A stretch of 32,000 nt of DNA from Gemmata obscuriglobus (GCF_008065095.1 NZ_CP042911.1:3390001-3422000); one strand, 5' to 3'. Counted from the stretch's first letter, positions 3,955 through 20,977 are shown. Program-made: numbers and translations. The notes: a model not told the origin generated them from the sequence alone.

Positions 3955-4027
3955 GGGCGTTTAACTCAGCGGTTAGAGTGCCTCCCTTACAAGGAGGAAG
4001 TCGGGGGTTCGAGTCCCTCAACGCCCA
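3955..4027 (+). tRNA. tRNA-Val (anticodon UAC)
   Basis: 73 nt cloverleaf folded by hand. Acceptor GGGCGTT/AACGCCC, D-arm ACTC-AGCGGTTA-GAGT, anticodon stem CCTCC/GGAGG with loop CTTACAA, T-arm GGGGG-TTCGAGT-CCCTC, discriminator A. No encoded CCA. Confidence 0.9.
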
Positions 4028-4540
4028 CTGACAGAAGTCCGATCGACTCAGGCCTTCGCGACAATCTCACGATAGAGGGCTATCGTGTCTCGTGCCAAAT
4101 CCGCATCCCAATTTACCGCCACCAAAAAACGCAACGACGGCGCCCGATGCTGAGTGGGCGGCTGTATCACCTTGAGCGAGTGCCCTTCCTTCGCGCTGCA
4201 TACGGATTTCCGGCCCACTTGGTTGCCTTGGGCGGCTCCGCAAACGAGGAAGATGCGGGTGAGGAAGGAGCCGTAGAAACTGGCGGAGCGGTTACTTCGG
4301 GCTCTGGGCCAGGACTAGTGTTCGACATTGAACACTTCGGATCAAATCTGAGTGAACGGTTATTCCACTCGCCTCGAAGGCATCGGCGCGGCCCCGGGAG
4401 TTCATCCCCATTGGCGCAGAGCTTTGCGAACCAAGCGCCGCTCTCCAAATTTGGCGAGGTGCCGGCGCAGGTCGTTGAGCAAACGAGCCGGTTCGGAGCT
4501 TGGCGCATCAGTTGCGAGCTGGTCTAATCACATTCGAGCC

Positions 4541-4640
4541 GTCGAAATAGGGCACCGAGTTGAGCCCCAAGCACGAGGGGCGAAATGGTCCTGTGTTATT
4601 GGGCTTGGGCAAAGTCTCGCACACCAAACACGGGTTCGGC
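4541..4640 (+). repeat. degenerate attC-like site (R0) at the tRNA-proximal end of the array
   Basis: Ends in a perfect GTTCGGC (4634-4640), followed 16 nt later by an ORF start, as in the other units. The 5' end GTCGAAA matches only 5 of 7, an inner GGGCACC is shared with R5, and there is a GCCCCAAGC/GCTTGGGC stem. Otherwise diverged. Confidence 0.3.
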
Positions 4641-4656
4641 AACACGAGGTGCAGCG

Positions 4657-5010
4657 ATGGCAAAGCACGTTGGTGCGGGCTTCTTGGTCGCGCGCCTGCT
4701 CGTCGCCACCTTGGGGGCTGCGACGAGCGGGTGGACCCTCGTCGTAGCCTTCGCCTTCGCAAGCATGACGGGCGTGTCCCCGAGCGGCAGCCCGCAGTGG
4801 TGGGCCGCCGCGCTTGGTAGGCTCTTCCTGTCATCGTCCGAGTCAGTGATCGCGTGGCTGTTGTCGGCCCTGCTGCTCGCGTGCGCCGGTATCGGTGCCC
4901 GTGACCTCGTGGTACTCCTGTACCGCCTCGGCTCCGGCCTCGCAAACGCCATTGCCCGCTCCCCACGAGCCCCCGGCCCGATACCGCCCATGAACGGGGC
5001 GGGCGGTTAA
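4657..5010 (+). CDS. cassette ORF 0: small hydrophobic membrane protein (117 aa)
   Basis: ATG at 4657 with GAGG 8-11 nt upstream. It is in frame within track ORF 4585..5010. About three predicted TM stretches (FLVARLLVATLGAA, WTLVVAFAFASM, VIAWLLSALLLACAGIG). I recognise no family. Confidence 0.5.
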   Translation: MAKHVGAGFLVARLLVATLGAATSGWTLVVAFAFASMTGVSPSGSPQWWAAALGRLFLSSSESVIAWLLSALLLACAGIGARDLVVLLYRLGSGLANAIARSPRAPGPIPPMNGAGG

Positions 5011-5036
5011 CGTGGCCGGTACCATGTATCGGGTCG

Positions 5037-5128
5037 GCCGAACACGGCGCTGCACCTGACACCGCCATCGGCATTGTGACGCACCGCTCACCTGGATCCT
5101 GGCGGTGCAAGTGAGCTTTATGTTCGGC
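5037..5128 (+). repeat. attC-like site R1
   Basis: 92 bp. GCCGAAC...GTTCGGC terminal inverted boxes, inner pairings GCT/AGC, CACCTG/CAAGTG and ACCGCC/GGCGGT with bulged bases. Matches R2 at 90 of 92 positions. Confidence 0.7.
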
Positions 5129-5129
5129 G

Positions 5130-5456
5130 TTGAAGCCCCGAGCCAAAACTACCCGTGCCCATGAAGTTCTCCGCTGCGACACAAGAGAGAACCACATGGA
5201 CCGACGGTGCAACCACAGCCACTACTGGACGACGTCGCCCGTGTCGGACCGCAAGGCGGGCTCCACAACCTTGCATCTCCACGGCAAGTTTGAGATCACC
5301 GAACAGGCGACACAGGCGACCGTTGTCGCTGAGGTGATCTACTGGGATGCGGCTCCGGGTTACTTTTTGCAGACATTCGGAAGTGAGGTACCCGTTGACG
5401 TCATTGAGGAATTGATCGCCGAAGCCAAAGAAAAGATTGTAAGCGTTCACAGTTGA
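5130..5456 (+). CDS. cassette ORF 1: hypothetical protein, 3' end disrupted by the IS66 insertion
   Basis: TTG at 5130 or, more plausibly, ATG at 5196 (MDRRCNHSHYW...). The reading frame enters the IS at 5439 and ends VSVHS*. Joining 5438 to 7044 restores ...EAKEKIRYF* with the stop at 7053-7055. Confidence 0.5.
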   Translation: MKPRAKTTRAHEVLRCDTRENHMDRRCNHSHYWTTSPVSDRKAGSTTLHLHGKFEITEQATQATVVAEVIYWDAAPGYFLQTFGSEVPVDVIEELIAEAKEKIVSVHS

Positions 5457-7035
5457 TGCGGGTGTATCTCAACAGCCAGCGAAAGTTGGGTTCATCATCG
5501 GTGGTTGTTGAGCCGGGACCGGGATCAGTGTTGGTGGCTTTGCCCCGGTACGGTGTGCGGTGACGGCGTCGGTGAGGAATGCGAGCACGTTGCGGCCCTG
5601 CCGGCGACACGAGGCCAGGACCGTGAGGATCCGCTCCACGAACCGGCTACCGCGTTCGGAGTCGGTGCCGTAGCTGGTCTTGCGCCAGCACACGGCGTGA
5701 CGCAGGGCCCGCTCGGCCGCGTTGTTGGTCGGTTCCACCCCGCCCACGCGTGCGAACGTCCACAGGGCCGGCTCCACCGCCAACAGCTCGCGGCACACGG
5801 CCCCGGTCTTGGGGCACCCGCACCGGCCCCCGTGCCCCAGGTGCGTGCGGAACCGGGCCCGCACGGCGCGGGCGTACACGCGAGCGAACGTGGACCGGGC
5901 TAACGTCCCGTCCCGCACCCGGAACCAGTGCCCGAACAGTTCGTCGGAACAGGCCAACAGGGCGGCCCCGATCGGGGATCCGTCGTTGCCCCGATCGATC
6001 ATCGCCTGGAAGTCCCGCCGCAGGTGCGCCCAGCACACCTGGCGCCGATGCACCGGCAGATGCGTGTACACCGGATACCGATCGGTCGTGTGGACCTGGG
6101 CGGACCCGTCCCGCAGGTCGTCGAACGCGCTCCGGCCCCGGGTGGCGCGGATCAGGAATGCGACCACCGAGGTGCTCACCGCGACCCACAACCAGGCCCG
6201 CTGGCGCCCTTGCGTCCAGCCCGTTTCGTCCACGTTCGCCGGGTGCCCGCGGGTGTACGCGAGAGCCGCTTCGGCCACCGGGGCCAGAGCCGCCGCGGTC
6301 GTGTGCTGGAGTTTGCACACCGTGGCCGGACGGATGGGCAACCCGAACAGGTCGTCGAACAGTTGGCTCACCACCCGCTTGCCCAGGCGGCACGAACCGG
6401 TGAGCATGGCGGCCACCGCCTGGACCCGGGGACCGTACCCGGGAGCCGCGTCGGCGGGCACCGGTGCGGTCGTCACGGCGCCGCAGTGCGGGCACCGGAG
6501 CCGATGGCACCGATACTCGGTCACCTGCGGCCGGACGACCGGGATCTCATGCACCTGGTGAATCGACGGGTTCGGGTCGTCCCCGGTGAGTGGGCACGCA
6601 CACCCGCGGCAGGTGTCCGGTTTGAGGGTGTGGACCGTGTCGGGCGGCAGCACGGTGCGCTCGGCCTTGGGGTGCCCCGATTGACCGCCGCGCCGCTTCC
6701 CCGAGGGACTCTTGGGCGGGGCCGGCTTCACCTGCGGACCATCCGACGAGGGCGGTTTCGACGAGTTGCTGGAATTCTGGTTGAGCCGGGTCTGAAGGTC
6801 GGCCACCGTGACCTGGAGAGCCGCGACCGTGGCCTGCAACTGCGCAACCGTCGCTTCCAGCGCACGAATGTACGCCACCACCGCTGGCGGCAGGTCACTC
6901 GGTAGCTCCGGCGGTTGAGGAACAGATGTCATCGCGTCCGTTCGATTACGGAACACCGGCTCTTGAGGCAACCCCGCGCAGAATCGAGTCACAAAGGCCT
7001 GGAAAATGCACGGCCCGCACCCCGTGAACGGTTAC
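5439..7035 (-). mobile_element. IS66-family insertion sequence, single-ORF (ISBst12-like) type, apparently intact
   Basis: 1597 bp. Imperfect terminal inverted repeats GTAAGCGTTCACAG (from 5439) and GTAACCGTTCACGG (reverse complement from 7035). Flanked by a perfect 8-bp direct repeat AAAAGATT (5431-5438 and 7036-7043), the target-duplication length usual for IS66. Confidence 0.9.
5469..6992 (-). CDS. IS66-family transposase
   Basis: 507 aa; the likelier start is M21 at 6932 (MTSVPQPPEL). Has an N-terminal leucine-zipper-like LEATVAQLQATVAALQVTVADLQ, the SKPPSSD motif, a Cys-rich zinc-finger region (CRGC...CPHCG) and a DDE core with NVDETGW. No tnpA or tnpB-like ORFs are present. Confidence 0.9.
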   Translation of the reverse strand: MTRFCAGLPQEPVFRNRTDAMTSVPQPPELPSDLPPAVVAYIRALEATVAQLQATVAALQVTVADLQTRLNQNSSNSSKPPSSDGPQVKPAPPKSPSGKRRGGQSGHPKAERTVLPPDTVHTLKPDTCRGCACPLTGDDPNPSIHQVHEIPVVRPQVTEYRCHRLRCPHCGAVTTAPVPADAAPGYGPRVQAVAAMLTGSCRLGKRVVSQLFDDLFGLPIRPATVCKLQHTTAAALAPVAEAALAYTRGHPANVDETGWTQGRQRAWLWVAVSTSVVAFLIRATRGRSAFDDLRDGSAQVHTTDRYPVYTHLPVHRRQVCWAHLRRDFQAMIDRGNDGSPIGAALLACSDELFGHWFRVRDGTLARSTFARVYARAVRARFRTHLGHGGRCGCPKTGAVCRELLAVEPALWTFARVGGVEPTNNAAERALRHAVCWRKTSYGTDSERGSRFVERILTVLASCRRQGRNVLAFLTDAVTAHRTGAKPPTLIPVPAQQPPMMNPTFAGC

Positions 7036-7174
7036 AAAAGATTAGGTATTTCTAGGGCCGATTGGCGTAGCTTTGGGCTTATGTAGGCGGCTTGCGTCGC
7101 AAGCGTTATAACCTTCGCCTTTCATGGCTTGATGGATGATGTCTGCGATGTCGTAGAAACGCACATCAAGGCAA

Positions 7175-7266
7175 GCCGAACCCGGCGCTGCACCTGACAC
7201 CGCCATCGGCATTGTGACCCACCGCTCACCTGGATCCTGGCGGTGCAAGTGAGCTTTATGTTCGGC
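7175..7266 (+). repeat. attC-like site R2
   Basis: 92 bp, GCCGAAC...GTTCGGC, two mismatches to R1. Confidence 0.7.
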
Positions 7267-7283
7267 CACCGAAGGGCGGTTGC

Positions 7284-8030
7284 TTGTTTCACATCCTGAC
7301 AGCAACGGACGCCGACCAGCGGTTGGCAGAGCTGGAGCGGTTCATCCAGCACTGGTACGGCCCCCGCCGGCCGGAGTTTGGGGAACCCGACGCGCTCGCT
7401 GGCTACCCCGAACTGCCTGGCTCGCTCCGGCGGTTTTACTCGTTCGCTGGCCAATGGCCGTCCCCAAACCCAGACAGCGATGCCGAGTATTTCTACACCG
7501 GGGGGAGCGGACACCACCTGCTCCCACTCGCCCAGGCCAGCCCGACCGTGGACGGGCGGCTGCGGTTCTTCATGGAGTACCAGGGGGACTGGTACGGGGT
7601 GACGACGCCGGGCGAGCCGGACCCGCCGGTCTGGATCACCGGCCGGTGGGACGAGGAGGGCGCCCCGGAGGGGACCGAGGACGGCCCCGAGCCGCAGGCC
7701 AAAACGCGGCAGGTGTCCGCCGCGCTGTCCAGGTTCCTCGTCACCCACTGTCTGATGACGACGGTGTACGAGTGGGACAACTCCCCACATCCGCGGACGA
7801 GTTCGCATGCGGTCGATACCGCCCTGGCCGACTGGCTCCGGCGAGAGCGGGCGTCCGCCGAGGTCTTGTGGGCGGCCGAGCCGGGCGGGTGCCCGAACTA
7901 CGAGGGGTCGTTCCTCCTGCTACACGGGCGGGTTTTGGTCCACGACACGGGCTCGGGGTTCCTCAAGTTCGGGGCGCGGCACCCGGAAGGTATCGAGCTG
8001 CTCCGAGGCGTGATCGGTGACGCGGTCTAA
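7284..8030 (+). CDS. cassette ORF 2: hypothetical soluble protein (248 aa), largest cassette
   Basis: TTG start 17 nt after R2, stop 6 nt before R3. No TM segment or signal peptide. The N-terminal LAELERFIQHWYG...LPGSLRRFYSFAG loosely recalls SMI1/KNR4 (SUKH) proteins, but I cannot verify that. Confidence 0.55.
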   Translation: MFHILTATDADQRLAELERFIQHWYGPRRPEFGEPDALAGYPELPGSLRRFYSFAGQWPSPNPDSDAEYFYTGGSGHHLLPLAQASPTVDGRLRFFMEYQGDWYGVTTPGEPDPPVWITGRWDEEGAPEGTEDGPEPQAKTRQVSAALSRFLVTHCLMTTVYEWDNSPHPRTSSHAVDTALADWLRRERASAEVLWAAEPGGCPNYEGSFLLLHGRVLVHDTGSGFLKFGARHPEGIELLRGVIGDAV

Positions 8031-8036
8031 AGGCAC

Positions 8037-8129
8037 GCCGAACCCGGCGCTGCACCGGACCGCTGTAAAATACGTACTGTTGGGATCGTCTCGCTCATCG
8101 TCGCGGTGCCGGTGAGCTGTTCGTTCGGC
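8037..8129 (+). repeat. attC-like site R3
   Basis: 93 bp, GCCGAAC CCGGCGCTGCACC...GGTGCCGGTGAGCTGTTC GTTCGGC. The central part is diverged. Confidence 0.65.
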
Positions 8130-8157
8130 GGGGAAGCCCGAGCCAGCGGAGTCGCGG

Positions 8158-8583
8158 ATGGGTGGGAGCGAAGCGGTGACGTACTGGCTCGTCCGCGGCG
8201 GTGTGGCGGCGGCCGGGTTGGTTGCCATCCTGGGCACCGTGTCCAGCCATTTCTTCATGCCCGAGCTGTACTACGACCACCTGCCCGAGCCGCCCCCGCT
8301 GCGGGCGCAATTGCCGTCGATCGCCGCCGGGTTCGGGGTCGGGACGTTGCTGCTCGTGCCCCACCGGGTTACCATGCGCGGATGGCTGTTCTGGCCCCGA
8401 CTGGCGGTGTCGGCGGCGGTCGGCCTGTTCCTGGTGGGGGCCGGGCTGTCGGCTATCGCCGCCGGTGCGCGGGGCGGCCGTGACCCGGCCATCTTCCCGG
8501 CTGGTGTAGGTTTGCTACTCACCGGGGTGAGCGTGCCCGGCTCCTTGTGGTGGCACAGGCGCCGAACCCGACGCTGCGCCTGA
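8158..8583 (+). CDS. cassette ORF 3: membrane protein (141 aa, about 4 TM segments)
   Basis: ATG 28 nt after R3. Hydrophobic stretches VAAAGLVAILGTV, IAAGFGVGTLLLV, LAVSAAVGLFLVGAGLSAIAA and VGLLLTGVSV. The stop lies inside R4. Confidence 0.6.
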   Translation: MGGSEAVTYWLVRGGVAAAGLVAILGTVSSHFFMPELYYDHLPEPPPLRAQLPSIAAGFGVGTLLLVPHRVTMRGWLFWPRLAVSAAVGLFLVGAGLSAIAAGARGGRDPAIFPAGVGLLLTGVSVPGSLWWHRRRTRRCA

Positions 8584-8651
8584 CACCGCCCGCTGATTTG
8601 TGACGCATCGCTGACGGTATGATGGCGCTGCAGGTGAGCTGTTCGTTCAAC
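8561..8651 (+). repeat. attC-like site R4
   Basis: 91 bp, GCCGAAC...GCTGCAGGTGAGCTGTTC GTTCAAC (3' box variant). Confidence 0.65.
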
Positions 8652-8666
8652 CCCAGAGGGGATCGA

Positions 8667-9023
8667 GTGAGGAAGCGCGGACGAATCGGGGTGACGTTCT
8701 TGATCCTGACCGTGGTGCTGGTGGCCGGATTGGCCGTCGCGGGTCGCCAGCCCGAGCCTCCACCGCTCCTCACGCTCGATGATGCCGTCGGGTTCGAAGT
8801 CGCGGGTGGGTGGCGGGTGGTGCAGTCACCGGACCTGCCCGGTCCGTATCGGCGGGGCGGGTTGCCGCACCAGGCAGCCAAGGGCCAAGGTGGCGGCGCG
8901 CGGTGGCGCAACCGAATGGGAGAGGCGAGCCATCAGTTCGTGCCGCAGCAGGGTGCCGAACAACTCGCCGTTCCTTTGGAGACAGTTGACGGGCGGCTCA
9001 CCGTCGCGGTTCTCGCCCGCTAG
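8667..9023 (+). CDS. cassette ORF 4: N-terminally anchored or secreted small protein (118 aa)
   Basis: GTG at 8667, 15 nt after R4, with GAGGGG upstream. VRKRGRIGVTFLILTVVLVAGLAVAG forms a signal-anchor. In frame within track ORF 8619..9023. Confidence 0.5.
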   Translation: MRKRGRIGVTFLILTVVLVAGLAVAGRQPEPPPLLTLDDAVGFEVAGGWRVVQSPDLPGPYRRGGLPHQAAKGQGGGARWRNRMGEASHQFVPQQGAEQLAVPLETVDGRLTVAVLAR

Positions 9024-9030
9024 CGCAGAC

Positions 9031-9121
9031 GCCGAACCCGGCGGGGCACCTGACGCCGCCGGCTAATTTGGAACGCGCCGCTCATCCGGTGGTGGCAGCA
9101 CAGGTGAGCTGTAAGTTCGGC
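9031..9121 (+). repeat. attC-like site R5
   Basis: 91 bp, GCCGAAC CCGGCGGGGCACCTGAC...GCACAGGTGAGCTGTAA GTTCGGC. Confidence 0.7.
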
Positions 9122-9138
9122 CCCAGAGGCGGTCGTCA

Positions 9139-9549
9139 ATGTCCTACGACTTGGTTTTCTGGCGGCAGACGGTCGCGCGTACCGCCTCGCCGGTCGATAC
9201 GTACCGCTGCCTCTGCCGCAGCGAGTCGGTGGATGACATCGGCGAACTCACCGCGGCGGAGATCCACGCCGCGTTCGCGGCCGAGTTTCCGGACTTAATC
9301 GCCGAGCCAAACGAGTTGCTCGGCCCGATGTTCTCGGTGATGCTCTACGCCCGCCCGGTCCGAGCGGTGTTCGCGATCTGCTCGCGGAAGGTGCTGGAGC
9401 GGCCAGAGGTCGTCGAGCGGATCATCCGGGTTGGCCGGGACAGCCTGGGGTGTTGTTACTTCAACCCGCAGTCGGGCGAGTTCTCGGTACCACTCGAGGC
9501 CACACTTGGTCGGCTGAGCCCAGACGCCGAACCCGACACCGACGGCTGA
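9139..9549 (+). CDS. cassette ORF 5: hypothetical soluble protein (136 aa)
   Basis: ATG 17 nt after R5 with GAGG upstream; starts MSYDLVFWRQ. The C-terminal PDAEPDTDG* is encoded by R6. Confidence 0.6.
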   Translation: MSYDLVFWRQTVARTASPVDTYRCLCRSESVDDIGELTAAEIHAAFAAEFPDLIAEPNELLGPMFSVMLYARPVRAVFAICSRKVLERPEVVERIIRVGRDSLGCCYFNPQSGEFSVPLEATLGRLSPDAEPDTDG

Positions 9550-9603
9550 TTCGGTCGCTTCGCTCATCCGGTGATGGCGGTGCAGCTCAGCTTATCGTTT
9601 GGC
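9526..9603 (+). repeat. attC-like site R6 (short variant)
   Basis: 78 bp, GCCGAAC...CGCTCATCCGGTGATGGCGGTGCAGCTCAGCTTATC GTTTGGC. The 5' inner arm is shortened. Confidence 0.6.
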
Positions 9604-9620
9604 CACAGAGGGCGCCTCAA

Positions 9621-10100
9621 ATGGCGGAAGCACCGCCGGAACTGCGAGCGGAGTTCGACTCGCTGTTCGTCGCGCCGTTCGCGACGCGCCGCTGGGCATC
9701 AGCGCGAGGCCGGTCACACTGGGTCGAGTTGGAGGGCTGGCAGGACGCGATGGCCGGCCCGCTGTCGGCCATCGCGGAGGCTGGGAGTTGCGAGTACGTC
9801 TATTTCCGTGACGACTGGTACTTTGCAACCGTCAACGACCCGGCGACCCTGCGGGCACGGCTGCTCGAATGGCACGCGGGACTAGCGGCCGGCGTCGAAC
9901 GGTTCGCACCGGCCACACCCGAAGAGGCCGCCGATCAGGAATTCATGCGGGCGGTGGTCGGCCGGATGCGGGAACTGGTCCAGCGGGCGTGTGCGCTGGA
10001 GGAAGTCCGCTGTCACGCCAAACCCGGCGCCGCACCTGAGACCACTGGCTGCTTTGTGACGCGCCGCTCATCCGATGATGGCGGCGCAGGTGAGCTGTAG
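9621..10100 (+). CDS. cassette ORF 6: hypothetical soluble protein (159 aa)
   Basis: ATG 17 nt after R6 with GAGGG upstream; starts MAEAPPELRAEFDSLF. In frame within track ORF 9450..10100. The ORF reads through almost all of R7 before stopping. Confidence 0.55.
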   Translation: MAEAPPELRAEFDSLFVAPFATRRWASARGRSHWVELEGWQDAMAGPLSAIAEAGSCEYVYFRDDWYFATVNDPATLRARLLEWHAGLAAGVERFAPATPEEAADQEFMRAVVGRMRELVQRACALEEVRCHAKPGAAPETTGCFVTRRSSDDGGAGEL

Positions 10101-10107
10101 GTTAGGT
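10017..10107 (+). repeat. attC-like site R7
   Basis: 91 bp, GCCAAAC...GGCGGCGCAGGTGAGCTGTAG GTTAGGT. The 3' box fits the canonical GTTRRRY consensus. Confidence 0.7.
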
Positions 10108-10125
10108 AACCCGAGGGCTTCGGCG

Positions 10126-10557
10126 GTGGACGAGTTGCCGGACCACCTGCGGCGGTACCCGACCTGCGCCGGGCGTGACGCTCTGGCGGCCCGACTCGGC
10201 CTGACCATGGACCCGTTCTCGCAGGATTGGGAGTGGGAGGTCGCCGACCCGGCTCGCTTCGACGGTTGGCTGGCTGTATACCGCGACGAGCCGCTGTCCG
10301 ACGATGAGCGCTTCTCGCTGGCGGAGATGCTGATCCAGTGCGTCGATGACATGGTGCCGAGTTATGGTCCGCCGGCAGAGGTGGAGGAGTTGGCCCAGTG
10401 GCAGGCGGTCGCCGCGCTGCTCCGCGCGCGGCCGCGGCTGCACGCCAGCCGTATCGCGTACTGGTCGGTGTTCGGGCACGACGAGCCGGAGGAGCAGTTC
10501 CGGGTGTCTGTCCCGATGCGGCGGGTATGGGCGGCGGTGCAGCCGGCGCTGGGGTAG
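10126..10557 (+). CDS. cassette ORF 7: hypothetical acidic soluble protein (143 aa)
   Basis: GTG 18 nt after R7 with GAGGG upstream; starts VDELPDHLRRYP and contains DPFSQDWEWEVADPARFDGWL. In frame within track ORF 10075..10557. Confidence 0.55.
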   Translation: MDELPDHLRRYPTCAGRDALAARLGLTMDPFSQDWEWEVADPARFDGWLAVYRDEPLSDDERFSLAEMLIQCVDDMVPSYGPPAEVEELAQWQAVAALLRARPRLHASRIAYWSVFGHDEPEEQFRVSVPMRRVWAAVQPALG

Positions 10558-10566
10558 CAAAGGCAT

Positions 10567-10658
10567 ACCGAACCGGTACTGCACCGGGCACAGCAATGTG
10601 ATCTGGGGCGCACCGCTCGTCCGATGATGGCGGTGCAGGCGAGCTTTGATTGTTCGGC
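10567..10658 (+). repeat. attC-like site R8
   Basis: 92 bp, ACCGAAC...CGCTCGTCCGATGATGGCGGTGCAGGCGAGCTTTGATT GTTCGGC. Confidence 0.65.
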
Positions 10659-10676
10659 AGCGGAAGTGAGGCCGGC

Positions 10677-11087
10677 GTGGAAGCGTTTGAGGTGCGGCTC
10701 AACGGGGACCGAATCTGCCTCGCAGGCGTCGCCGACGGCGTTCTAACCGTCAACGTCCACATTGTCGGTGGGCCCGAGCGTGGGCGCCGCTTCCACCTCA
10801 GTGTCGGCGGGATCGACAGCGCTTCGGACGAGCACCTGAGCTGGCCCGTCCCGGGTATCGGAGTCGGGGCGGAGGTTCTGGTTCGAGTGATCGACACGGA
10901 CGCCGTCGATCCGCCGGAGCAGCGGGGCCGAGTCGAGCAGCGCACACAACTGGAGCAGTTCCGCGAGTGCCTGCGTCTCTTCAGCGAGCGGATGAGCAAC
11001 GACGAGCGGCGGCAACTCCTCCGCGAACTGGTCGCCGAGCTTGAGCGCCCAGACGCCGAACCTGGCGCTGCACCGGACCGCGGTTGA
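10677..11087 (+). CDS. cassette ORF 8: hypothetical soluble protein (136 aa)
   Basis: GTG 18 nt after R8 with GAGG upstream (the track ORF starts at TTG 10650, inside R8). Starts VEAFEVRLNGDRICLAG. The C-terminal PDAEPGAAPDRG* is encoded by R9. Confidence 0.55.
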   Translation: MEAFEVRLNGDRICLAGVADGVLTVNVHIVGGPERGRRFHLSVGGIDSASDEHLSWPVPGIGVGAEVLVRVIDTDAVDPPEQRGRVEQRTQLEQFRECLRLFSERMSNDERRQLLRELVAELERPDAEPGAAPDRG

Positions 11088-11144
11088 ATACGCACTTTGG
11101 TGACCGTGTCGCGATGTGCGAAGCCGCTGAACTGGTTGTTCGGC
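11055..11144 (+). repeat. attC-like site R9
   Basis: 90 bp, GCCGAAC CTGGCGCTGCACCGGACCGC...GTT GTTCGGC. The 3' inner arm is diverged. Confidence 0.6.
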
Positions 11145-11175
11145 GGCAGAGTGCTTCCGGTGGTGGCAAGGTTCG

Positions 11176-11383
11176 ATGGGTGAAGGTCTGCACGCGCTGG
11201 CCTCGACCTACCGCAGTTTGGTCGAAAGGGACTTCCCGACCGCGGGCGTGCATCCCGACACGGTGACGCGAGGGCTGTGGCTGCAGATCCGCGCCGGGGA
11301 GGTAGCCAAGGCGAAAGCACTTTTGAGGCACTACGTTCAGCTCGCACCATGGTGCGCTGCACACGGTTGCCGAACAGACTCTG
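11176..11383 (+). CDS. cassette ORF 9: short hypothetical ORF whose 3' end runs into a truncated attC and an IS remnant
   Basis: ATG 31 nt after R9; starts MGEGLHALASTYRSLVERDF. In the track it is fused artificially to IS66-remnant sequence (11176..11634). Confidence 0.3.
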
Positions 11384-11390
11384 ATGTGCA
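11369..11390 (+). repeat. truncated attC-like site (R10, 5' box only)
   Basis: GCCGAAC at 11369-11375, followed by ...GATGTGCACC (compare GCGCTGCACC in the other sites). Repeat similarity then gives way to transposase-like coding sequence. Confidence 0.3.
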
Positions 11391-11696
11391 CCCGCGGGCG
11401 CCCGACCCACGTGGACGAGACGGGTTGGAAGCAAGGAGCCAAGTGTGCGTGGCGGTGACCACGTCGGCGGTGGCGTTACTGATCCGCAAGATGAGGGGCC
11501 GAACCGCCTTCGATGAGCTGCGGGGTGGGCCGATGGCGGATCACGCGGCCAACCGGTACCCGAGGTATGCGCATCTGCCCGAGTACACACGCCAGTTGTG
11601 CGGGGCGACCAGTGGCGCGACTTTCAAGCGATGATCGACCGAGCCCACGGGCGCTCGGGGATTGGGGCCGATCTGCTGGAGTGTTCTGACATCCTG
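11384..11696 (+). pseudogene. IS66-family transposase remnant (internal fragment, at least 2 frameshifts)
   Basis: Three frames together give CTRGRPTHVDETGWKQGAKCAW / VAVTTSAVALLIRKMRGRTAFDELRGG...RYPRYAHLPEYTRQLC / RDFQAMIDRAHGRSGIGADLLECSD. This is collinear with roughly residues 245-355 of the intact transposase at 5469..6992 (YTRGHPANVDETGW...WVAVSTSVVAFLIRATRGRSAFDDL...RDFQAMIDRGNDGSPIGAALLACSD). I saw no IS termini. Confidence 0.75.
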
Positions 11697-11939
11697 CGTC
11701 GAGGACGAGGCAGCGGGCGGGGCGCGGGTCGTGCGCCGAGTTCGCCTTTCGGTCCGCGAACCCGCCGTTTAGGGACTCCGGGAGCTTTCCCGGCGTCACG
11801 TCTGTCGGGTACGCCCCGGTGCGAAGTTCCCACGAAGCCGCCCGCGCTTCGGAGATGAGGGGTACGAGAGCGAATGCGCGCGAGCAGGTGGCGCGAGGCA
11901 ACCCTCAAGGTGGAGGCACGTGACACGAGTGCCCGGAAA

Positions 11940-14900
11940 TCACTTCAGTGTGCCCAGGTAGGCCAGTAGGTCGGCGATTTCGGTGTCCGCGAGTTTGTCC
12001 AGTAACCCGGCGGGCATGAGCGACAACTCGACCGGCTTCTTCGAGGCGATGTCGGCGCCGGCGATGCGGGCGGTGGTGTCGGCCCCGGTTTGCAGAATGA
12101 TGCCGTCGGTCGCCTCATACACCGGCACGCCGATGAAGCTCTTTTCGTCGGTGGTGGTGATGCGAACAGCCCGGTAACGCGGCGGGATGTCCTTGCTGGG
12201 TTGAAGGATCGCGGTGAGAAGGTCGTCGCGACCGAACCGCTTGGTGACCCCGATCAGCGACGGCCCGACCGCGCCGCCGCCGTCGTGGCACGCCGCACAG
12301 GTCGCTTTGGTGAACGCCGTCCGCCCGCGCGCGGCGTCGCCCGTGGTCCAATCGACTCTCGCGAGGCGCTTGCCCCACGCGGCTGCGTCGAACCCGTCGC
12401 CCGCGTCGAGTGCCTTTGCTTCATCGGGGTACGTTTTCACGAACCAGGCCGTCCACGCCTTTTCGTCCGGTCCGAACTTCTGCTTGCTGTACTTCTGGAG
12501 TAGCGTCACGAGCGTGTCCCGGGTGCGGAGATCGGTCTTCGGGTCCGGGAACCGCCGCAGCGCTCGCACCGCGGCGGCGGCAACGAGTGAGGGTTCTGCG
12601 TCGAGCGACTTGGCCAATGCGCTTGCTGACCCGCGGACGATTTCTGCGTCAAGGGATTTGAGACCGACGAGGAATTTGGGGACGTCGCACGGGTCCGGCT
12701 GGCGTGTGGCCACCCGTAACACGGCTTCCTCGAATCCGCCGCGGTCCCACAGGTTTTCGAGCGTCGCACCCGCTTCAACGCGGGGCAGTTCGGCGAGTAG
12801 CGCGACCGCGCGCGGCGTCCATGCGTACTTGGGGTTGTCCTTCGCACGCTCCAGAAACTTCAGTGCGGCGGTCTTCGGTGGGAGTTTCAACGGTCCCACC
12901 AGGGCCGCGTGTTCCGGCTGTCCGAAGTCTTTGTGTTCGAGGACCGCTCGCGGCAGGTCGGGGTATTGTGTTTCCAGTTGCCGCAGCAACTCGTCGAACC
13001 GGAGCGGCCAGTGGCGGTCCAACGTGACGCCCTGCGCTGTGATTTTTCTCTGGAGCCGCAGCAGAATAGTGGCGATTTCGTCGGCGGTGGCCCAGACGGC
13101 ACGCGAGTCCGCACGGGCGAGCGCGACGAGGTAATGGAAGTCGTCCGCTTGGGGAGTGCTGTCGGATATCTCGGGCGCCGCGCCGCGGAGCGAGCGCCGG
13201 TCGAGGGGACCGAGTGCGGTGAGCACGCGGGTCAGTTCGAGTAGCACGACGCGGGGCAGGGCGGGTTCGCGGAGCGCCTGCTTGACGATCGCGACGCCCA
13301 ACAGCGCGGCACGCTCCTTCGGGACCGGCTCGCGGAACGTGTACCCTTCCCACACCGTTCCGGTCGCGTCCTTCGCGGTCAGGTCTCCGTGTGTCAGGTG
13401 AACGATTCGCAGCGCCGCGAGCAGGTCTGCGGGCTCGGCCCGCGGGTTGTTGAGAACCCCGGACGCGACCTTCAGCGCCCAGTTCTGGTCGCGTGGTGCG
13501 ACCACGAGCGCGACCGCGAGTTGCGCCGGGGTTGGCGGCTTTCCGTCCGGAACGTCGCCAACGGGTACCGTCAGCGCGACCGCTGCTCGCGCCGCCGCAG
13601 CGCGGATCAGCGGATCGCGCGAGGCGAGGTTCGGTTTTACCGCGTCGATCAGTTCTTCGCCCCAGGCAAGTTTGTCACGGTGGCGCAGGAGCAACTCCAG
13701 GGCCTCGCGCCGGCGTCGCAGTTCGTCCGGCGATGGGGCGGGCCGGCGCGGGGACGGCTCGGCGTCGCGCAGCCAGAGGTCGGCGCGGTCTTTGGTGTAC
13801 TCGATCGCGCGCCGAGCGATCGGAAGCGGCTTCGGCTCCGGCTCCGCTCCGCCTCGATCGAAGGTGATCCGGTACACGCCGCCGCGGGTGCCGCGCCCGC
13901 CGATGCTGACGAACAGTTCGCCGGTCTTGGGATGAATTGCGAGCGCGGTTGGCGCGAACCCACTCGTGCCCGTCGCTTCTGCAAACACCTCCGGTTTCCC
14001 TTCATACGTCGAACCGGCCGCAGTGAGCGGAACGAAGTGGATGCGGCCAAAAGTCCAGTCGGCGAGGAAGAACCCGCCGCGGTACTTTTCCGGGAACTGT
14101 GTGTGTCGGTAACACGCGACCCCGGTTGGTGATCCACGGCCGAGATCGGCGATCGGCTTCACGACGTCAGGGAAGTGGGGCGGTTTGCGCCACGTTTGCG
14201 AGAGTTGCGGGGAACGCCAGCCGTAGTTCCCGCCGGGGACGATGTGCAGGAACCGGCATCCTTCGTACCACGGCAGCCCCGAGCACCGCTCGTTGTCGGA
14301 GTCGAAGGTGAACGGCTCGCCGTCGGGGTTGAAATCGAACGAGTACGGGTTGCGGAACCCGTCCGCAACGATTTCCACGGTCTTGAAGTCGGGGGAGAGA
14401 CGCAGCACCGCGCCGGCGATCGGTTCGCCGATCGGGGAGCGGACGTCTGTGGCGGTGCCTTTCTTGACGCCGGCGTTGTTCCCACACAGCAGGTAGAGCC
14501 AGCCATCGGGGCTGCGGCGCAGCGCGTGCGCGTCGTGCTCGCCGCCGGTTTTCAGTGCCAGTAGTAACTCGGGGGCTGGAAGCTTGTCTTTTCCGTTGTA
14601 CCCGCGGTAGCGCTTCAAGCCGCCGTCCGAGACGACGAAAAGTGAGTCCCCCTCCGCGAGGAGCCCCATTGGGCCTTCCTTGAGCCCGTCGATGAGATCG
14701 ACGGCGCGGTCCGCAACACCGTCGTTATCGGAATCCACCAGCGCGCGAACGTACCCGCGGGAGGCAATCAGCACGCGGCCCGCGTCGTCGACGGTCATCG
14801 TGTAGGTGTCGGGCGCGAGCGGGTTGTCGGCGTACAGCTTCGCGCTGAAGCCCGGCGGGAGTCGCAAGTCGTTTACGGGGGCCGGTGGCGCGGCGGCGTT

Positions 14901-14984
14901 GGCCGCGAGGAAGAGCAGGGCCGGAACCATCGGTTCACCTCCGGGAGCGGCAACCAGCTTACCGTTCTTTCCGAAATGTTGCAC
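11940..14984 (-). CDS. PVC-type putative membrane-bound dehydrogenase domain protein with HEAT-like repeats and a C-terminal c-type heme domain
   Basis: 1014 aa; the probable true start is M19 at 14930 (MVPALLFLAANAAAPP signal peptide). The N-terminal LPPGFSAKLYADNPLAPD beta-propeller-like domain resembles the Pirellula/Verrucomicrobium dehydrogenase domain. C-terminal CAACH heme motif followed by GPSL. Confidence 0.8.
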   Translation of the reverse strand: MQHFGKNGKLVAAPGGEPMVPALLFLAANAAAPPAPVNDLRLPPGFSAKLYADNPLAPDTYTMTVDDAGRVLIASRGYVRALVDSDNDGVADRAVDLIDGLKEGPMGLLAEGDSLFVVSDGGLKRYRGYNGKDKLPAPELLLALKTGGEHDAHALRRSPDGWLYLLCGNNAGVKKGTATDVRSPIGEPIAGAVLRLSPDFKTVEIVADGFRNPYSFDFNPDGEPFTFDSDNERCSGLPWYEGCRFLHIVPGGNYGWRSPQLSQTWRKPPHFPDVVKPIADLGRGSPTGVACYRHTQFPEKYRGGFFLADWTFGRIHFVPLTAAGSTYEGKPEVFAEATGTSGFAPTALAIHPKTGELFVSIGGRGTRGGVYRITFDRGGAEPEPKPLPIARRAIEYTKDRADLWLRDAEPSPRRPAPSPDELRRRREALELLLRHRDKLAWGEELIDAVKPNLASRDPLIRAAAARAAVALTVPVGDVPDGKPPTPAQLAVALVVAPRDQNWALKVASGVLNNPRAEPADLLAALRIVHLTHGDLTAKDATGTVWEGYTFREPVPKERAALLGVAIVKQALREPALPRVVLLELTRVLTALGPLDRRSLRGAAPEISDSTPQADDFHYLVALARADSRAVWATADEIATILLRLQRKITAQGVTLDRHWPLRFDELLRQLETQYPDLPRAVLEHKDFGQPEHAALVGPLKLPPKTAALKFLERAKDNPKYAWTPRAVALLAELPRVEAGATLENLWDRGGFEEAVLRVATRQPDPCDVPKFLVGLKSLDAEIVRGSASALAKSLDAEPSLVAAAAVRALRRFPDPKTDLRTRDTLVTLLQKYSKQKFGPDEKAWTAWFVKTYPDEAKALDAGDGFDAAAWGKRLARVDWTTGDAARGRTAFTKATCAACHDGGGAVGPSLIGVTKRFGRDDLLTAILQPSKDIPPRYRAVRITTTDEKSFIGVPVYEATDGIILQTGADTTARIAGADIASKKPVELSLMPAGLLDKLADTEIADLLAYLGTLK

Positions 14985-15040
14985 GACGCAACCGCCCGCT
15001 TGCCACTAATACTGGTGACCCCGTTCGCCCGGGAGAAGCT

Positions 15041-17314
15041 ATGCCGCGCCTCACGCTCCGCACCCTGTTGGCGTACCTCGACGACACGCTCGCGCCCGTG
15101 GAAGCTAAAAGCCTCGGCCGCAAGGTCGCCGGCAGCGACGAGGCCCGCGAACTAATTGACCGCATCAAGCGGGTTACCCGGCGGCGCGGGTTGAGTACGC
15201 CGGTCCCGACCGACGCTGACGACGAGACCGCCGACCCGAACACGGTGGCCGAGTACCTCGACAACACGCTCGACTCGGCGACCGTTAAGCAAGTCGAAGA
15301 GACTTGCCTGGGGTCCGACGTTCACCTCGCAGAGGTCGCGGCCGTCCACCAGATTCTGACGCTGGTCCTGACCGAGCCGGTGCGTGTGCCGCCGCGCGCC
15401 AACCGGCGCATGTACGGACTCGTTCCGCCGCCCGCGTCGCGCCCGAAGCGACGACCGAACAAGAAGTTGCTCCCGGTGAGCGGCACTCGACCCCCCGAAC
15501 CGGACCGCTCCGAGGCCGACGACGCCGACGCGGCCCTGCTCTTGGGGTTGAAGCGCTACGCCGCGTCCGACACCTGGGCCGGGCGTCTCGCACTGGTGGG
15601 CATCGGAGGGGGGCTCGCGCTGATACTCGTATGTGCCGTCTACATGTCGCTGCCGCACCGCGGGCCGAGGCCGCCCGAAACCACACCCGGCAACTCGTTC
15701 GCGCAGCTCAACACCGCCCCGCCCGCCACCGGACCAGAGGAGGGCGTTCCGAAGCCGAAAGAGGTCGAGCCCAAGCCGAAAGAGGTCGAGCCGAAGCCGG
15801 CCACGAAAACGACGGACGAAGAACCGGTTGTTCCCACGCCGAAGGCGCTCGACCCGACCGAGCTATCGGCGGCCTTGGGGGCCGCGGTGGCGGGGGAGGT
15901 GGTAGCCGCTGCGGCCGCCGCGGGACCCAACCTCTCCGACCCGATCGCTCCCCCCGACGACAAGGTCGCCGAAATCGGTCGCGTCGAAACGAGCCGGGTG
16001 CTGGTGGTTGCACAAGACCCCGGGGCCGCCGGGCAGTGGCTTCGGTTGAAGACCAAACCCGAGGACGACGCCCCCATACTTGCGAACGTCCCGGTCATGG
16101 CACTGCCGGGATACAAGGCGCACCTGCTGATCGGACAGCGTGACAAGCAGGTCCAGGTGCTGTTGTGGGGGAACGTGCCGGAACAGGTGCCGTACCGCGT
16201 GTTCGAGTCCCGGGTGAAGTTCCACCAACCGCCCACCGGGTTCGACGCCGACCTCACGCTCCTCGGCGGGCGCATCTACCTCAAGAGCAAAGCGATCGGT
16301 GCGGACAAGAAGCCCACTAGCGCAAAGGTGCGCGTGCGGGTTGCGCGCGAGGTGTGGGACATTACCATTCCGAACGCGCAGGCCGACGTCCTTGTGGAAC
16401 TGGTCTCGTGGTTCGAGCCCGGGACGATGTACGCGCGCAAGGACGGAGCCGCACCGCGCCAGGAGGCGCGAGTCGCGGTGGTCGCCGGAACTGCATCGCT
16501 GACCGCGCCGCGACGGTTCAAGACGGTGCCGAAGCTCGAACGCAAAACTCAGGTCGACTGGAACTCGGGTTCCGGTTCGCTGTCTGATCCCAAGCCGATC
16601 CCCAACGATCTGGAAGCGGACCCCAACCCGCCCCTCGACGGTGAGATCCTCAAAATCATTACTCGCACCCTGTCGGATGCGGCCAACAAGGTGGCTGACA
16701 AGAATGTGGTACGTCAGGTCGTCGAGGGCCGCCTCGAACCACCCCCGGGAACCCCGGACCGCGACCTCGTTGCGCGGCTGGCGGTTTACACTCAGGCCGC
16801 GCTTGCGGACTGCACTCCGACCGGCGGCGAGCACCTGAAGCCGCTCGTGGACCTGCTGCGGTCCGAACTCCCGTGGCTGGCGCGGCAGTCGGTGGTGACG
16901 GCGCTGACCGCGTGGGTGGCGCGCGATCCGGGGAACACGGCGATCCTGCGGTCGGTTCTGGTGAGTAAGGGGTTGGGTGAGGAGACCGAGAACGAAGACG
17001 CCGCGGACCGGTTGCTGCGGCTGCTCCGCGGGTTCGTGTCGCCGACCAAGCCCGACCCGGACCGGCTCGACGATTTGGTCAAGTATTTGGGCGACAAGGA
17101 GATCCCCGTCCGCGAGGCGGCGCTGTGGAACGTCCTCGCCGTGGAACTGGAGACGTGGGTGCCGCTCCCGCTGGAGCGCGGGAACGTCAACATCGGCGCC
17201 GTCGGCGCGGCGGTGAACAGCGAGGAGTACAAAAAGTTCCTGGCGAGTTGGCGAACGAAAATTGATGCGCTCAAGAAGCGTCCGGCACCGGTTCCCTTGC
17301 CACGCCCAAAGTAA
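15041..17314 (+). CDS. hypothetical membrane-anchored protein (757 aa) with a proline-rich linker and a C-terminal helical-repeat domain
   Basis: ATG at 15041 in frame within track ORF 14885..17314. Single TM segment (LALVGIGGGLALILVCAVYM), a PKPKEVEPKPKEVEPKP linker and HEAT-like helices near the C-terminus. Divergent from the dehydrogenase gene. Confidence 0.7.
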   Translation: MPRLTLRTLLAYLDDTLAPVEAKSLGRKVAGSDEARELIDRIKRVTRRRGLSTPVPTDADDETADPNTVAEYLDNTLDSATVKQVEETCLGSDVHLAEVAAVHQILTLVLTEPVRVPPRANRRMYGLVPPPASRPKRRPNKKLLPVSGTRPPEPDRSEADDADAALLLGLKRYAASDTWAGRLALVGIGGGLALILVCAVYMSLPHRGPRPPETTPGNSFAQLNTAPPATGPEEGVPKPKEVEPKPKEVEPKPATKTTDEEPVVPTPKALDPTELSAALGAAVAGEVVAAAAAAGPNLSDPIAPPDDKVAEIGRVETSRVLVVAQDPGAAGQWLRLKTKPEDDAPILANVPVMALPGYKAHLLIGQRDKQVQVLLWGNVPEQVPYRVFESRVKFHQPPTGFDADLTLLGGRIYLKSKAIGADKKPTSAKVRVRVAREVWDITIPNAQADVLVELVSWFEPGTMYARKDGAAPRQEARVAVVAGTASLTAPRRFKTVPKLERKTQVDWNSGSGSLSDPKPIPNDLEADPNPPLDGEILKIITRTLSDAANKVADKNVVRQVVEGRLEPPPGTPDRDLVARLAVYTQAALADCTPTGGEHLKPLVDLLRSELPWLARQSVVTALTAWVARDPGNTAILRSVLVSKGLGEETENEDAADRLLRLLRGFVSPTKPDPDRLDDLVKYLGDKEIPVREAALWNVLAVELETWVPLPLERGNVNIGAVGAAVNSEEYKKFLASWRTKIDALKKRPAPVPLPRPK
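15752..15793 (+). repeat. 21-bp tandem duplication inside the 757-aa gene
   Basis: AAGCCGAAAGAGGTCGAGCCC then AAGCCGAAAGAGGTCGAGCCG, followed by a partial third unit AAGCCGG. Encodes KPKEVEP x2. Confidence 0.9.
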
Positions 17315-17332
17315 CCGACAGGCTGATACGCG

Positions 17333-17360
17333 CCTCCGCAGTCGAATGTGATCGCGGAGG
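17333..17360. terminator. hairpin between convergent genes (possible bidirectional terminator)
   Basis: CCTCCGC (17333-17339) and GCGGAGG (17354-17360) with a 14-nt loop, between the stop of the 757-aa gene (17314) and the recJ stop (17384). No clear U-tract. Confidence 0.3.
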
Positions 17361-17383
17361 TGAGAGCAGGTGCTGACCATACT

Positions 17384-19186: not shown

Positions 19187-19447
19187 GGGGCCGATCCTTA
19201 TTTAGAACGTGTGTTCAGTGACGTGACAAGGCCAACCCGCTCTCGCGATACCCCGGCACGTCCGGCGCGCGCGGCGCATGCGCCCCGTCCGGGGCGTTCG
19301 GCGTTACGTGCGCCACCGGGCCACGGGGGAAGAATTCGAGTCCTTTTGCGCTCCGGCGGTTCACGAACCGGTTGCGGGGACGACGATGCGTGTAGTGACC
19401 GAGTGGCTGCCACCTGTAGACTTCCAACACGTCGGAGGATAGTTATC

Positions 19448-20029
19448 GTGAACGCCGCGTTCCTGCTCATGTCCACGGCCGCTCTGGCCGGTGCCGACGT
19501 GGCCCCGCCGCCCGCGGCGCCCGCTCCGGCCGTAATCAGCTCCGGCGCCGGGTGCAGCAACTGCGCGGTTCCGGTCGCGCCGTGCAACGACTGCGGCAAG
19601 ACCAAGGTCGGGCTGCTCGACAAACTCAAGGCCCGGCTCGGCGGGATCGGTAAGAAGTCGCACGACTGTGGGTGCGCCCCGGCCCCGGTCGCGCCGTGCA
19701 ACGACTGCGTGACCACCACGGTTTCCGCTCGCCCGAACCTCCTCGACAAACTGAAGTCGCGGATGGGGCACAAGAAGGCGTCGGCGTGCTGCGGCCCGGT
19801 GTGCGATCCGTGCGCGGTAGCTCCGCTGTCCGTGGTCCCGCCGACCCCGACGCCGGGCACGACCCCGCCGAGCACCACTCCGCCGAAGGAGATGCCCAAG
19901 CCGCAAGAGGCTCCCAAAACCCAACCCAAGCCGAAGACCACCAAGGACGAGGCTGCGGTTCCGCTACCGCTTCCGGCCGCTCCGGTGACCGGGGCCAGCG
20001 GTCTGGCCGGCGTTGGTAACCCCTACTAA
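19448..20029 (+). CDS. secreted Cys-rich / Pro-rich repeat protein (193 aa)
   Basis: GTG at 19448 preceded by GGAGGA; in frame in track ORF 18821..20029, whose upstream part is antisense to recJ. Signal-like FLLMSTAALAGA. Two copies of VAPCNDC...LLDKLK(A/S)R, then a PTPTPGTTPPSTTPPKEMPKPQ tail. Confidence 0.7.
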   Translation: MNAAFLLMSTAALAGADVAPPPAAPAPAVISSGAGCSNCAVPVAPCNDCGKTKVGLLDKLKARLGGIGKKSHDCGCAPAPVAPCNDCVTTTVSARPNLLDKLKSRMGHKKASACCGPVCDPCAVAPLSVVPPTPTPGTTPPSTTPPKEMPKPQEAPKTQPKPKTTKDEAAVPLPLPAAPVTGASGLAGVGNPY

Positions 20030-20059
20030 CGGGCTCCCGACCGCGTTGCGATCAACTCG

Positions 20060-20104
20060 CGCCCCCGGGCGGTCCTTTGGACCGGCCCGGGGGCGGTGTT
20101 TTTT
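20060..20104 (+). terminator. intrinsic terminator
   Basis: Perfect 11-bp stem CGCCCCCGGGC (20060-20070) / GCCCGGGGGCG (20085-20095), followed by GTG and TTTTTT (20099-20104), 30 nt after the stop at 20029. Confidence 0.75.
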
Positions 20105-20191
20105 GAGTGTGTTTCCAACTCTGCTCTTCCACCGGCCCGGTGCCGGATTAGTATTGGCTGTAGACTGGACACGCCAACGGGATTAGCACGG

Positions 20192-20770: not shown

Positions 20771-20977
20771 GCCGTCGCTTGCTGCGATCGGCCAAAAAAC
20801 TCAACCGCTTCACGGCGACGCGGTTCGTCTGAATCACGGTGCGCGTTGTGCCGCGCGTGCGCTCTTCGTGTTGCCGTAGAAGGTGCTGCGAATCGCGACG
20901 CCGCACCGCGAGAATTCAACACAAGGGGCCGCCCGCCGTTCGCACTCGGGACGGGTTACCGTTTCGGAGTTTCGTCC

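Follow-up and report, generated by a model that had tools for sequence, protein, structure and literature searches.

A probable integrase-less integron cassette array at a second attI-like site in Gemmata obscuriglobus

We analysed a 32-kb stretch of the Gemmata obscuriglobus chromosome (GCF_008065095.1 NZ_CP042911.1:3390001-3422000; hereafter the window, with coordinates counted from its first letter) and found that positions 4634-11350 very probably form an integron gene-cassette array of ten cassettes and nine attC sites without an integrase of its own. Nine attC sites on one strand, with no integron integrase (IntI) signal across 32 kb, match the definition of a cluster of attC sites lacking an integron integrase (CALIN) of Cury et al. 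(2016; PMC4889954), implemented in IntegronFinder as two or more attC sites with no nearby intI. The array is therefore classed as a CALIN, here with an orphan attI, and is not a complete integron, in which intI adjoins the attC array. tblastn with IntI probes (best E 0.85) and Pfam searches of the flanking genes revealed no IntI or IntI remnant in the window, covering 4.6 kb upstream and 20 kb downstream of the array. A sequence-only reading of the same DNA had proposed an integron-type cassette array next to tRNA-Val with no integrase in the window. Both parts hold, as the repeats have the structure of attC sites and recur beside intI genes in this genome and in relatives. That reading overlooked the start of the array at a copy of attI, the integrase 2 Mb away and the distal end formed by a relic of an insertion sequence (IS). 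Earlier work has described planctomycete integrons, CALINs and the mobilisation of CALIN cassettes in trans, so the locus is a known kind of element and no new type of genetic system; the conserved orphan attI is its one modestly new feature. A literature search returned no paper naming G. obscuriglobus together with intI, and a 2008 survey included other Planctomycetes and not Gemmata.

The nine repeats share the sequence and folding properties of attC sites. They are co-oriented imperfect palindromes of 78-93 nt (68-113 nt in relatives, within the 57-141 bp of attC sites), located exactly where first reported, and the reported distances between successive 3' boxes (488, 533 with the IS removed, 863, 522, 470, 482, 504, 551 and 486 bp) are all correct. 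Their boxes follow RYYYAAC ... GTTRRRY with a deviation at position 4, which is G/C where the consensus is Y/R; GCCGAAC ... GTTCGGC occurs in 6 of 9 window sites and 140-143 of 150 relatives, with AAC and GTT essentially invariant. Allowing up to two mismatches, the 5'-arm pattern has eight matches, comprising seven of the nine repeats exactly and one unrelated site at 20888, against a shuffle expectation of 0.98 ± 0.95. Canonical attC sites consist of an R box, a 5-6-nt unpaired central spacer, and extrahelical bases 16 and 23/24 with a 6-bp stem between them, the bulges lying on the arm opposite the AAC of the bottom strand, followed by a variable terminal structure (PMC5027507). Bottom-strand folding, suggested at the outset as a check, gives a structure that fits this layout for the repeats at 5037, 7175 and 8037: an R box of 7-8 bp leads through an internal loop of 4-5 nt (an unpaired spacer in attC 1) to 3 bp; two one-base bulges then flank 6 bp, and a longer stem and a variable loop complete the structure. 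The spacer comprises 5 nt per arm (CCGGC and TGTTC), and a 6-bp stem lies between the bulges, which fall at 16 and 23; the first is a top-strand G in 150 of 150 sites and the second a top-strand A, hence a bottom-strand T, in 147 of 150. The bottom strand is the stabler one in 100 of 148 sites (mean difference -0.66 kcal/mol, p=5e-6) and in six of the nine window sites, the top strand being stabler in the other three.

Model searches extend this family well beyond the window. A covariance model (R1) built from 20 copies, nine of them the window sites, finds exactly those nine in the 32 kb, all on the + strand and with nothing else significant; since these sites belong to the seed, the match of their scores is built in. 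The model also detects 337 further family members in Gemmata, Gemmataceae and other Planctomycetota loci, all in co-oriented arrays. Among the 150 best matches, 95.6% of cells pair, compared with at most 37% when partners are slid, and 221 double-change cells, spread over ten pairs, stand against 64 in shuffles, in an alignment whose fitting to the model favours the structure. As an independent model we took from the published Planctomycetes attC model its HMM part, transcribed from the supplement of Ghaly et al. (2021; PMC8352920) and run with nhmmer. This HMM part alone matches 11055-11144 and 8037-8129 at full length, on the + strand and with exact ends. The Gemmata sites resemble the Planctomycetes attC class in layout, in the top-strand bulges G16 and A23 and in the conserved AAC and GTT, but carry GCCGAAC/GTTCGGC boxes where the published model (consensus length 103) has GCCUAAC/GUUAGGC, and differ in L-box sequence as well.

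At its proximal end, about 600 bp downstream of tRNA-Val, the array starts at what sequence homology identifies as a diverged second copy of the species' attI. Positions 4578-4631 align with the 47 nt that directly precede the intI-side first cassette of G. obscuriglobus (locus L136) and of G. algarum (locus L135), with 41 of 47 aligned positions identical and 6 gapped (score 50-52); 500 shuffles scored 18.6 ± 2.5 with a maximum of 30, placing the homology at z ~12. The segment thus shows the proximal position, the presumed GTT crossover and the homology to the site between intI and first cassette that are expected of an attI by sequence. From tRNA-Val to 4640 the DNA is 88-91% identical in two G. 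algarum genomes, and the homology stops exactly at GGTTCGGC (4633-4640), past which each of the three genomes carries an unrelated first cassette. The comparison of this flank with relatives, which the sequence-only reading had recommended, returns the same site with different first cassettes. Between the two G. algarum strains the backbone is 97.8% identical and yet the first cassettes are unrelated, so turnover at this junction is recent, at least in the genus. A "degenerate copy" of the repeat that had been placed at 4541 receives no covariance-model score and folds no better than shuffles; resemblance to R boxes is confined to 18 nt at its end (ACCAAAC-ACGG-GTTCGGC). Lying in the 88-91% conserved sequence and overlapping the attI homology of 4578-4631, it is conserved backbone ending in the second, diverged attI. 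The spacer of about 550 bp between tRNA-Val and this site might hold a promoter for the array. It has no Pfam match on its ORFs, no coding-like G+C at third codon positions (GC3), no IntI similarity and no Rfam or promoter match. Compared with the intI-attI spacers found in integrons of other Gemmataceae or Planctomycetota, the ~600-bp backbone shows no similarity; it resembles only Gemmata's own attI.

G. obscuriglobus encodes an integron integrase elsewhere in its genome. Looking for IntI in the genome had also been recommended in advance, and a search seeded with a relative's IntI led through the 90% cluster of the G. algarum integron integrase to WP_010036109.1 (P0246). This full-length protein scores 427.3 bits against TIGR02249 (cut-off 265), matches profile positions 1-315 of 315, and, as read by eye from its translation, contains the catalytic R, K, HxxR, H and Y motifs and the IntI-specific insertion. 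Its gene lies at ~6.642 Mb in CP025958.1; directly after it, and oriented alike, come an attI junction and 20 or more attC sites belonging to this family, which score 64-110 bits with R1, 19 of them at 80 bits or more. The exact cassette 5 protein maps to ~4.62 Mb of CP025958.1, placing the window array ~2.02 Mb from this complete integron. Likewise, tblastn confirmed with NCBIfam identified IntI genes beside attC sites of this family in several contigs of Gemmata, Gemmataceae and Planctomycetota.

Cassettes of the window array recur in other genomes in different contexts. Cassette 4 with its preceding attC (8561-9131) is 92% identical to positions 10175-10746 of a G. algarum locus (L001), cassette 7 (10017-10664) is 92% identical to 11220-11866 of the same locus, and both have different neighbours there. 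Cassette 5 recurs in a Gemmata sp. metagenome-assembled genome (MAG) with 87% nucleotide identity, there too beside other cassettes than in the window. Each of these shared blocks is bounded by attC sites.

The explanation that we favour for these findings is the cassette array described above, very probably a real one, which the integrase of the genome would serve in trans. The bottom strand of each attC would fold into the canonical hairpin, and the integrase from the head of the main array, 2.0 Mb distant, would act here in trans, cutting between the G and TT of the R' box. Cassettes would then be excised by attC x attC recombination and inserted at the local attI by attI x attC recombination, and the array would presumably be transcribed from upstream. 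A bolder reading, of somewhat less than even probability, is that Gemmata integrons are multi-platform systems, in which the conserved second attI beside tRNA-Val, without its own integrase, actively captures and sheds cassettes through the single IntI encoded 2 Mb away, with a cargo that includes new folds such as that of cassette 2. On that reading, a CALIN need not be debris but can serve as a functioning satellite platform for insertion. The locus offers a clean, well-bounded case of an integrase-less array still connected to an integron, occupying the same chromosomal site in two species and yet carrying different cassettes from the first base past the crossover. Because one genome provides two attI copies, one IntI, and both intact and decayed attC sites, the choice between debris and satellite can be tested with defined substrates.

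Several observations weigh against the favoured explanation. Recombination activity is suggested by genome comparisons, the junction comparison comprises three genomes, and metagenome scans for the backbone-cassette junction returned nothing. The canonical structure is the minimum-energy fold in just three of the nine window attC sites, G:T pairs show no enrichment on the bottom strand, and extrahelical base 16 is a C on the bottom strand where G is usual, although the published Planctomycetes model likewise prefers a top-strand G at this bulge. The sequence-only Planctomycetes HMM detects two of the nine sites and misses the other seven, because Gemmata R and L boxes differ from the Planctomycetes consensus. 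A sigma-70 promoter scan, not tuned to Planctomycetes, found no promoter upstream of the array. Finally, the window attC sites score 53-95 bits, lower than the main-array sites despite having been part of the model seed, and the window array may for this reason now be inactive in G. obscuriglobus.

A dead relic, once served by an integrase and now decaying in G. obscuriglobus without recombination, with the differences between genomes being old, is an unlikely but substantial alternative. The satellite array is partly decayed in this species, as shown by the lost L'' arm of the attC at 9526, the altered R boxes of two further sites, the IS in cassette 1 and the distal IS66 relic that truncates the array, and such a history would also explain the six sites without a canonical minimum-energy fold and attC scores below the 80-110 bits of most main-array sites. 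Decay without recombination is harder to reconcile with three intact attC sites and an intact attI R box, with an IntI preserved over the whole TIGR02249 profile, and with G. algarum strains that share a 97.8% identical backbone and already differ in the first cassette.

Exchange without any integrase, through RecA-dependent homologous recombination between attC repeats that are 80-98% similar, appears improbable. The 98% identity of attC 1 and attC 2 over 92 nt would provide a substrate for it, and in both species cassettes 4 and 7 stand in the same order relative to each other, the outcome expected from differential deletion. But attI has only about 18 nt in common with the attC sites, and three different first cassettes abutting one attI exactly at GGTTCGGC stay unexplained by this route. 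A shade less probable again is an origin of the array as a fragment of the main integron, detached through a rearrangement, for example one mediated by IS66, with no separate platform involved. Rearrangement is one origin of CALINs named by Cury et al. (PMC4889954), the same IS lies in the array and 9 kb upstream of intI, and an IS relic bounds the array. A simple split, however, would not leave attI at both loci, the two copies have diverged, and the main array contains none of the window cassettes in its first 10 kb; moreover, G. algarum has the tRNA-Val-side attI at the corresponding position, which makes the arrangement older than the separation of the species. The notion that the repeats are elements resembling repetitive extragenic palindromes (REP) or miniature inverted-repeat transposable elements (MITE), or terminator hairpins, unrelated to integrons, fits their being intergenic imperfect palindromes with no Rfam match at gathering or permissive thresholds, but is effectively refuted by their attC-specific bulge geometry, the strictly co-oriented arrays of all 337 relatives, the adjoining IntI genes, the lack of terminator-type T-runs, and the lack of solitary or opposite-orientation copies in the window and the relatives' loci. 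Thus the three outcomes that the sequence-only reading had listed as contrary to it did not materialize: in place of no attC-model match, a published attC HMM matches two sites; in place of REP or MITE behaviour, the repeats occur only in co-oriented arrays; and in place of a genome and clade lacking IntI with identical loci, IntI is present and the relatives' content differs.

Table 1 Features of the window, in order along the + strand
Feature	Position	Strand	Remarks
Upstream side			isc operon (iscS, iscU, iscA, hscB), CMD-family gene, tRNA-Val(TAC)
tRNA-Val, anticodon TAC	3955..4028	+	ARAGORN; Rfam tRNA 72 bits
Conserved non-coding spacer, tRNA to attI	4029..4577		88-91% identity to orthologous stretch in two G. 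algarum genomes
attI-like site, second copy	4578..4640	+	Inferred crossover between G4634 and T4635
Cassette 0 ORF	4657..5010	+	117 aa, hydrophobic, ORFan; GC3 0.82; 55% homologue in G. algarum array
attC 1	5037..5128	+	Canonical; bottom-strand DNA fold -24.7 kcal/mol, z -3.8; R1 94.8 bits
Cassette 1 ORF	5196..5438	+	Interrupted by IS 12 nt before stop; restored, 84 aa ending EKIRYF
IS66-family insertion sequence	5439..7035	-	Single 507-aa transposase, 5469-6992
attC 2	7175..7266	+	Canonical; 98% identity to attC 1 over 92 nt
Cassette 2 ORF (c2, GobsT_28830)	7284..8030	+	248 aa; conserved family, no matching fold
attC 3	8037..8129	+	Canonical bottom-strand fold; Planctomycetes attC HMM E 2.8e-4, full length
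Cassette 3 ORF	8158..8583	+	141 aa, hydrophobic; GC3 0.86; no family match
attC 4	8561..8651	+	R' changed to GTTCAAC; covariance model match
Cassette 4 ORF	8667..9023	+	118 aa; common to G. algarum
attC 5	9031..9121	+	Alignment, covariance model match
Cassette 5 ORF	9139..9549	+	136 aa; 85% aa homologue in Gemmata sp. MAG array
attC 6	9526..9603	+	Defective: ~13 nt of L'' arm deleted; no canonical fold (alignments A1, A2)
Cassette 6 ORF	9621..10100	+	159 aa, reads through own attC; GC3 0.76
attC 7	10017..10107	+	Boxes GCCAAAC ... GTTAGGT; covariance model match
Cassette 7 ORF	10126..10557	+	143 aa; common to G. algarum
attC 8	10567..10658	+	Alignment, covariance model match
Cassette 8 ORF	10677..11087	+	136 aa; GC3 0.77
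attC 9, last	11055..11144	+	R1 53 bits; Planctomycetes attC HMM E 1.9e-5, full length
Cassette 9, truncated	11145..11350	+	ORF start 11176; without own attC
IS66-family transposase relic	11351..11700	+	Internal fragment, frameshifted; ends array
After repeat region			1014-aa heme-binding protein gene (- strand), recJ, more housekeeping genes

Comparison with known systems places the locus among CALINs with two distinguishing features. Like the CALINs of Cury et al. (PMC4889954), it has at least two co-oriented attC sites, one ORF per cassette, cassettes of unknown function, no intI within 4 kb and no intI pseudogene nearby, and, as in roughly half of CALINs, its replicon encodes an IntI at another place. 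Unlike a typical CALIN, it keeps at its proximal end a recognizable copy of the resident integron's attI, an element that is outside the CALIN definition and rarely known, and two species have it at one chromosomal location, filled with different cassettes. With the Vibrio cholerae superintegron and its VCR repeats it shares uniform attC sites that are typical of the species, measure ~90 nt and have long variable loops, mostly ORFan cassettes with host-like codon usage, and content that varies between close relatives. By contrast with that superintegron, it has no adjoining intI and only ten cassettes; the true sedentary integron of the G. obscuriglobus genome is the intI-headed array 2 Mb away.

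In this main integron (L136, CP025958.1:6631959-6652927, locus positions 10001-20969), intI is transcribed toward attI, sharing its direction with the cassettes, of which there are at least 20. The atypical layout is shared with Treponema denticola-type integrons (PMC3607928) and recurs in four further loci (L011, L038, L012 and L075), whereas L094 has the classical divergent layout. Gemmata IntI is closest, at 65-72% identity, to IntIs such as that of Methylomonas, a relationship that concerns the main integron and not the window array. The IntI of the Gemmata sp. MAG (L011 1204-2058) lacks ~40 N-terminal residues, its TIGR02249 match starting at position 43; given this missing N-terminus and 65-72% identity to other IntIs, its gene may be truncated. 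Logan contigs with an IntI identical to that of the MAG are metagenome-derived and were set aside as not belonging to this organism. Downstream of G. algarum intI (L135 11083-11125 and 11495-11534), the palindrome motif of attI, GTGTTA...CACACTAAA, occurs twice, in degenerate form at the first place and coinciding exactly with the contig end at the second; a 14-15-nt imperfect inverted repeat lies just 5' of the crossover in the attI region.

The cargo, described at the outset as ten ORFans with one + strand ORF per interval, bears out that description. GC3 of the ORFs is 0.72-0.88, the coding-type value seen in host genes, and the ORFs look promoterless, each with its own GAGG-type ribosome-binding motif; promoter and terminator scans inside the array returned nothing beyond chance. 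Searches of the ten ORFs against Pfam (down to E=10), NCBIfam and PADLOC gave sub-threshold noise only and no known family. These proteins, about ten and Gemmata-specific, are flagged for attention, foremost c2, whose confident structural model (AF2; pLDDT 90.9, pTM 0.90) matches no solved (PDB) or viral (BFVD) structure at E<=0.001. The c2 family has 59 homologues, none with a Pfam domain, and invariant residues W24, G26, H78, E98, Q100 and D113-P114. An 82% homologue sits in another attC array, from a metagenome, and a 46% homologue is a lone gene outside any array (L133). A guess that c2 is a SUKH/SMI1-KNR4 immunity protein found no support in Pfam or the fold search. SMI1_KNR4/SUKH domains, families associated with toxin immunity, do occur in cassettes of related Gemmata-type arrays (L132, L002 and L136 15577-16170), together with DUF4284, DUF6891, DUF4240 and ankyrin domains, a clue to what such arrays gather as cargo. 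The hydrophobic product of cassette 3 is probably a membrane protein. Cassette 1, which measures 533 bp when restored, has a G+C content of 0.50-0.57 (5129-5438 and 7044-7174) versus 0.64-0.72 in the other cassettes and 0.66 in the window, a composition that suggests more recent acquisition from a lower-G+C donor. A 525-aa - strand ORF across three cassettes (10013-11590) was rejected as a high-G+C artefact and not a gene, because its codon-position G+C (0.63, 0.77, 0.60) marks a wrong frame.

The element interrupting cassette 1 is a single-ORF member of the IS66 family. It is flanked by an 8-bp target duplication, AAAAGATT, at 5431-5438 and 7036-7043, and direct reading of the sequence gives the terminal inverted repeats GTAAGCGTTCAC and GTAACCGTTCAC, beginning GTAAGCG; an 8-bp duplication and GTAAGCG ends are typical of IS66. 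Its transposase carries DDE_Tnp_IS66, DUF6444 and zf-IS66 domains. A partial copy 99.9% identical to the window IS lies ~9 kb upstream of intI (L136 1-925), and on this basis the element is multicopy and probably active. The relic that has cut off the distal end of the array is 70% identical in nucleotide sequence to 5943-6280 in inverted orientation, and by tblastn it corresponds to transposase residues ~234-352 spread over three frames. A "truncated copy" of the repeat reported at 11369 proved to lie inside this frameshifted relic, where GCCGAAC codes for the Ala-Glu of the transposase motif VAEAAL.

Elsewhere in the window, which has a G+C content of 66%, no direct repeat of the tRNA-Val 3' end was found, and there is therefore no sign of a tRNA-integrated island. 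Archaeal integrons are known, and the attC pattern also matches single sites in L008, L042, L100 and L109 (Haloferax) and in other non-planctomycete loci from various phyla, which may be chance matches or unrelated attC sites.

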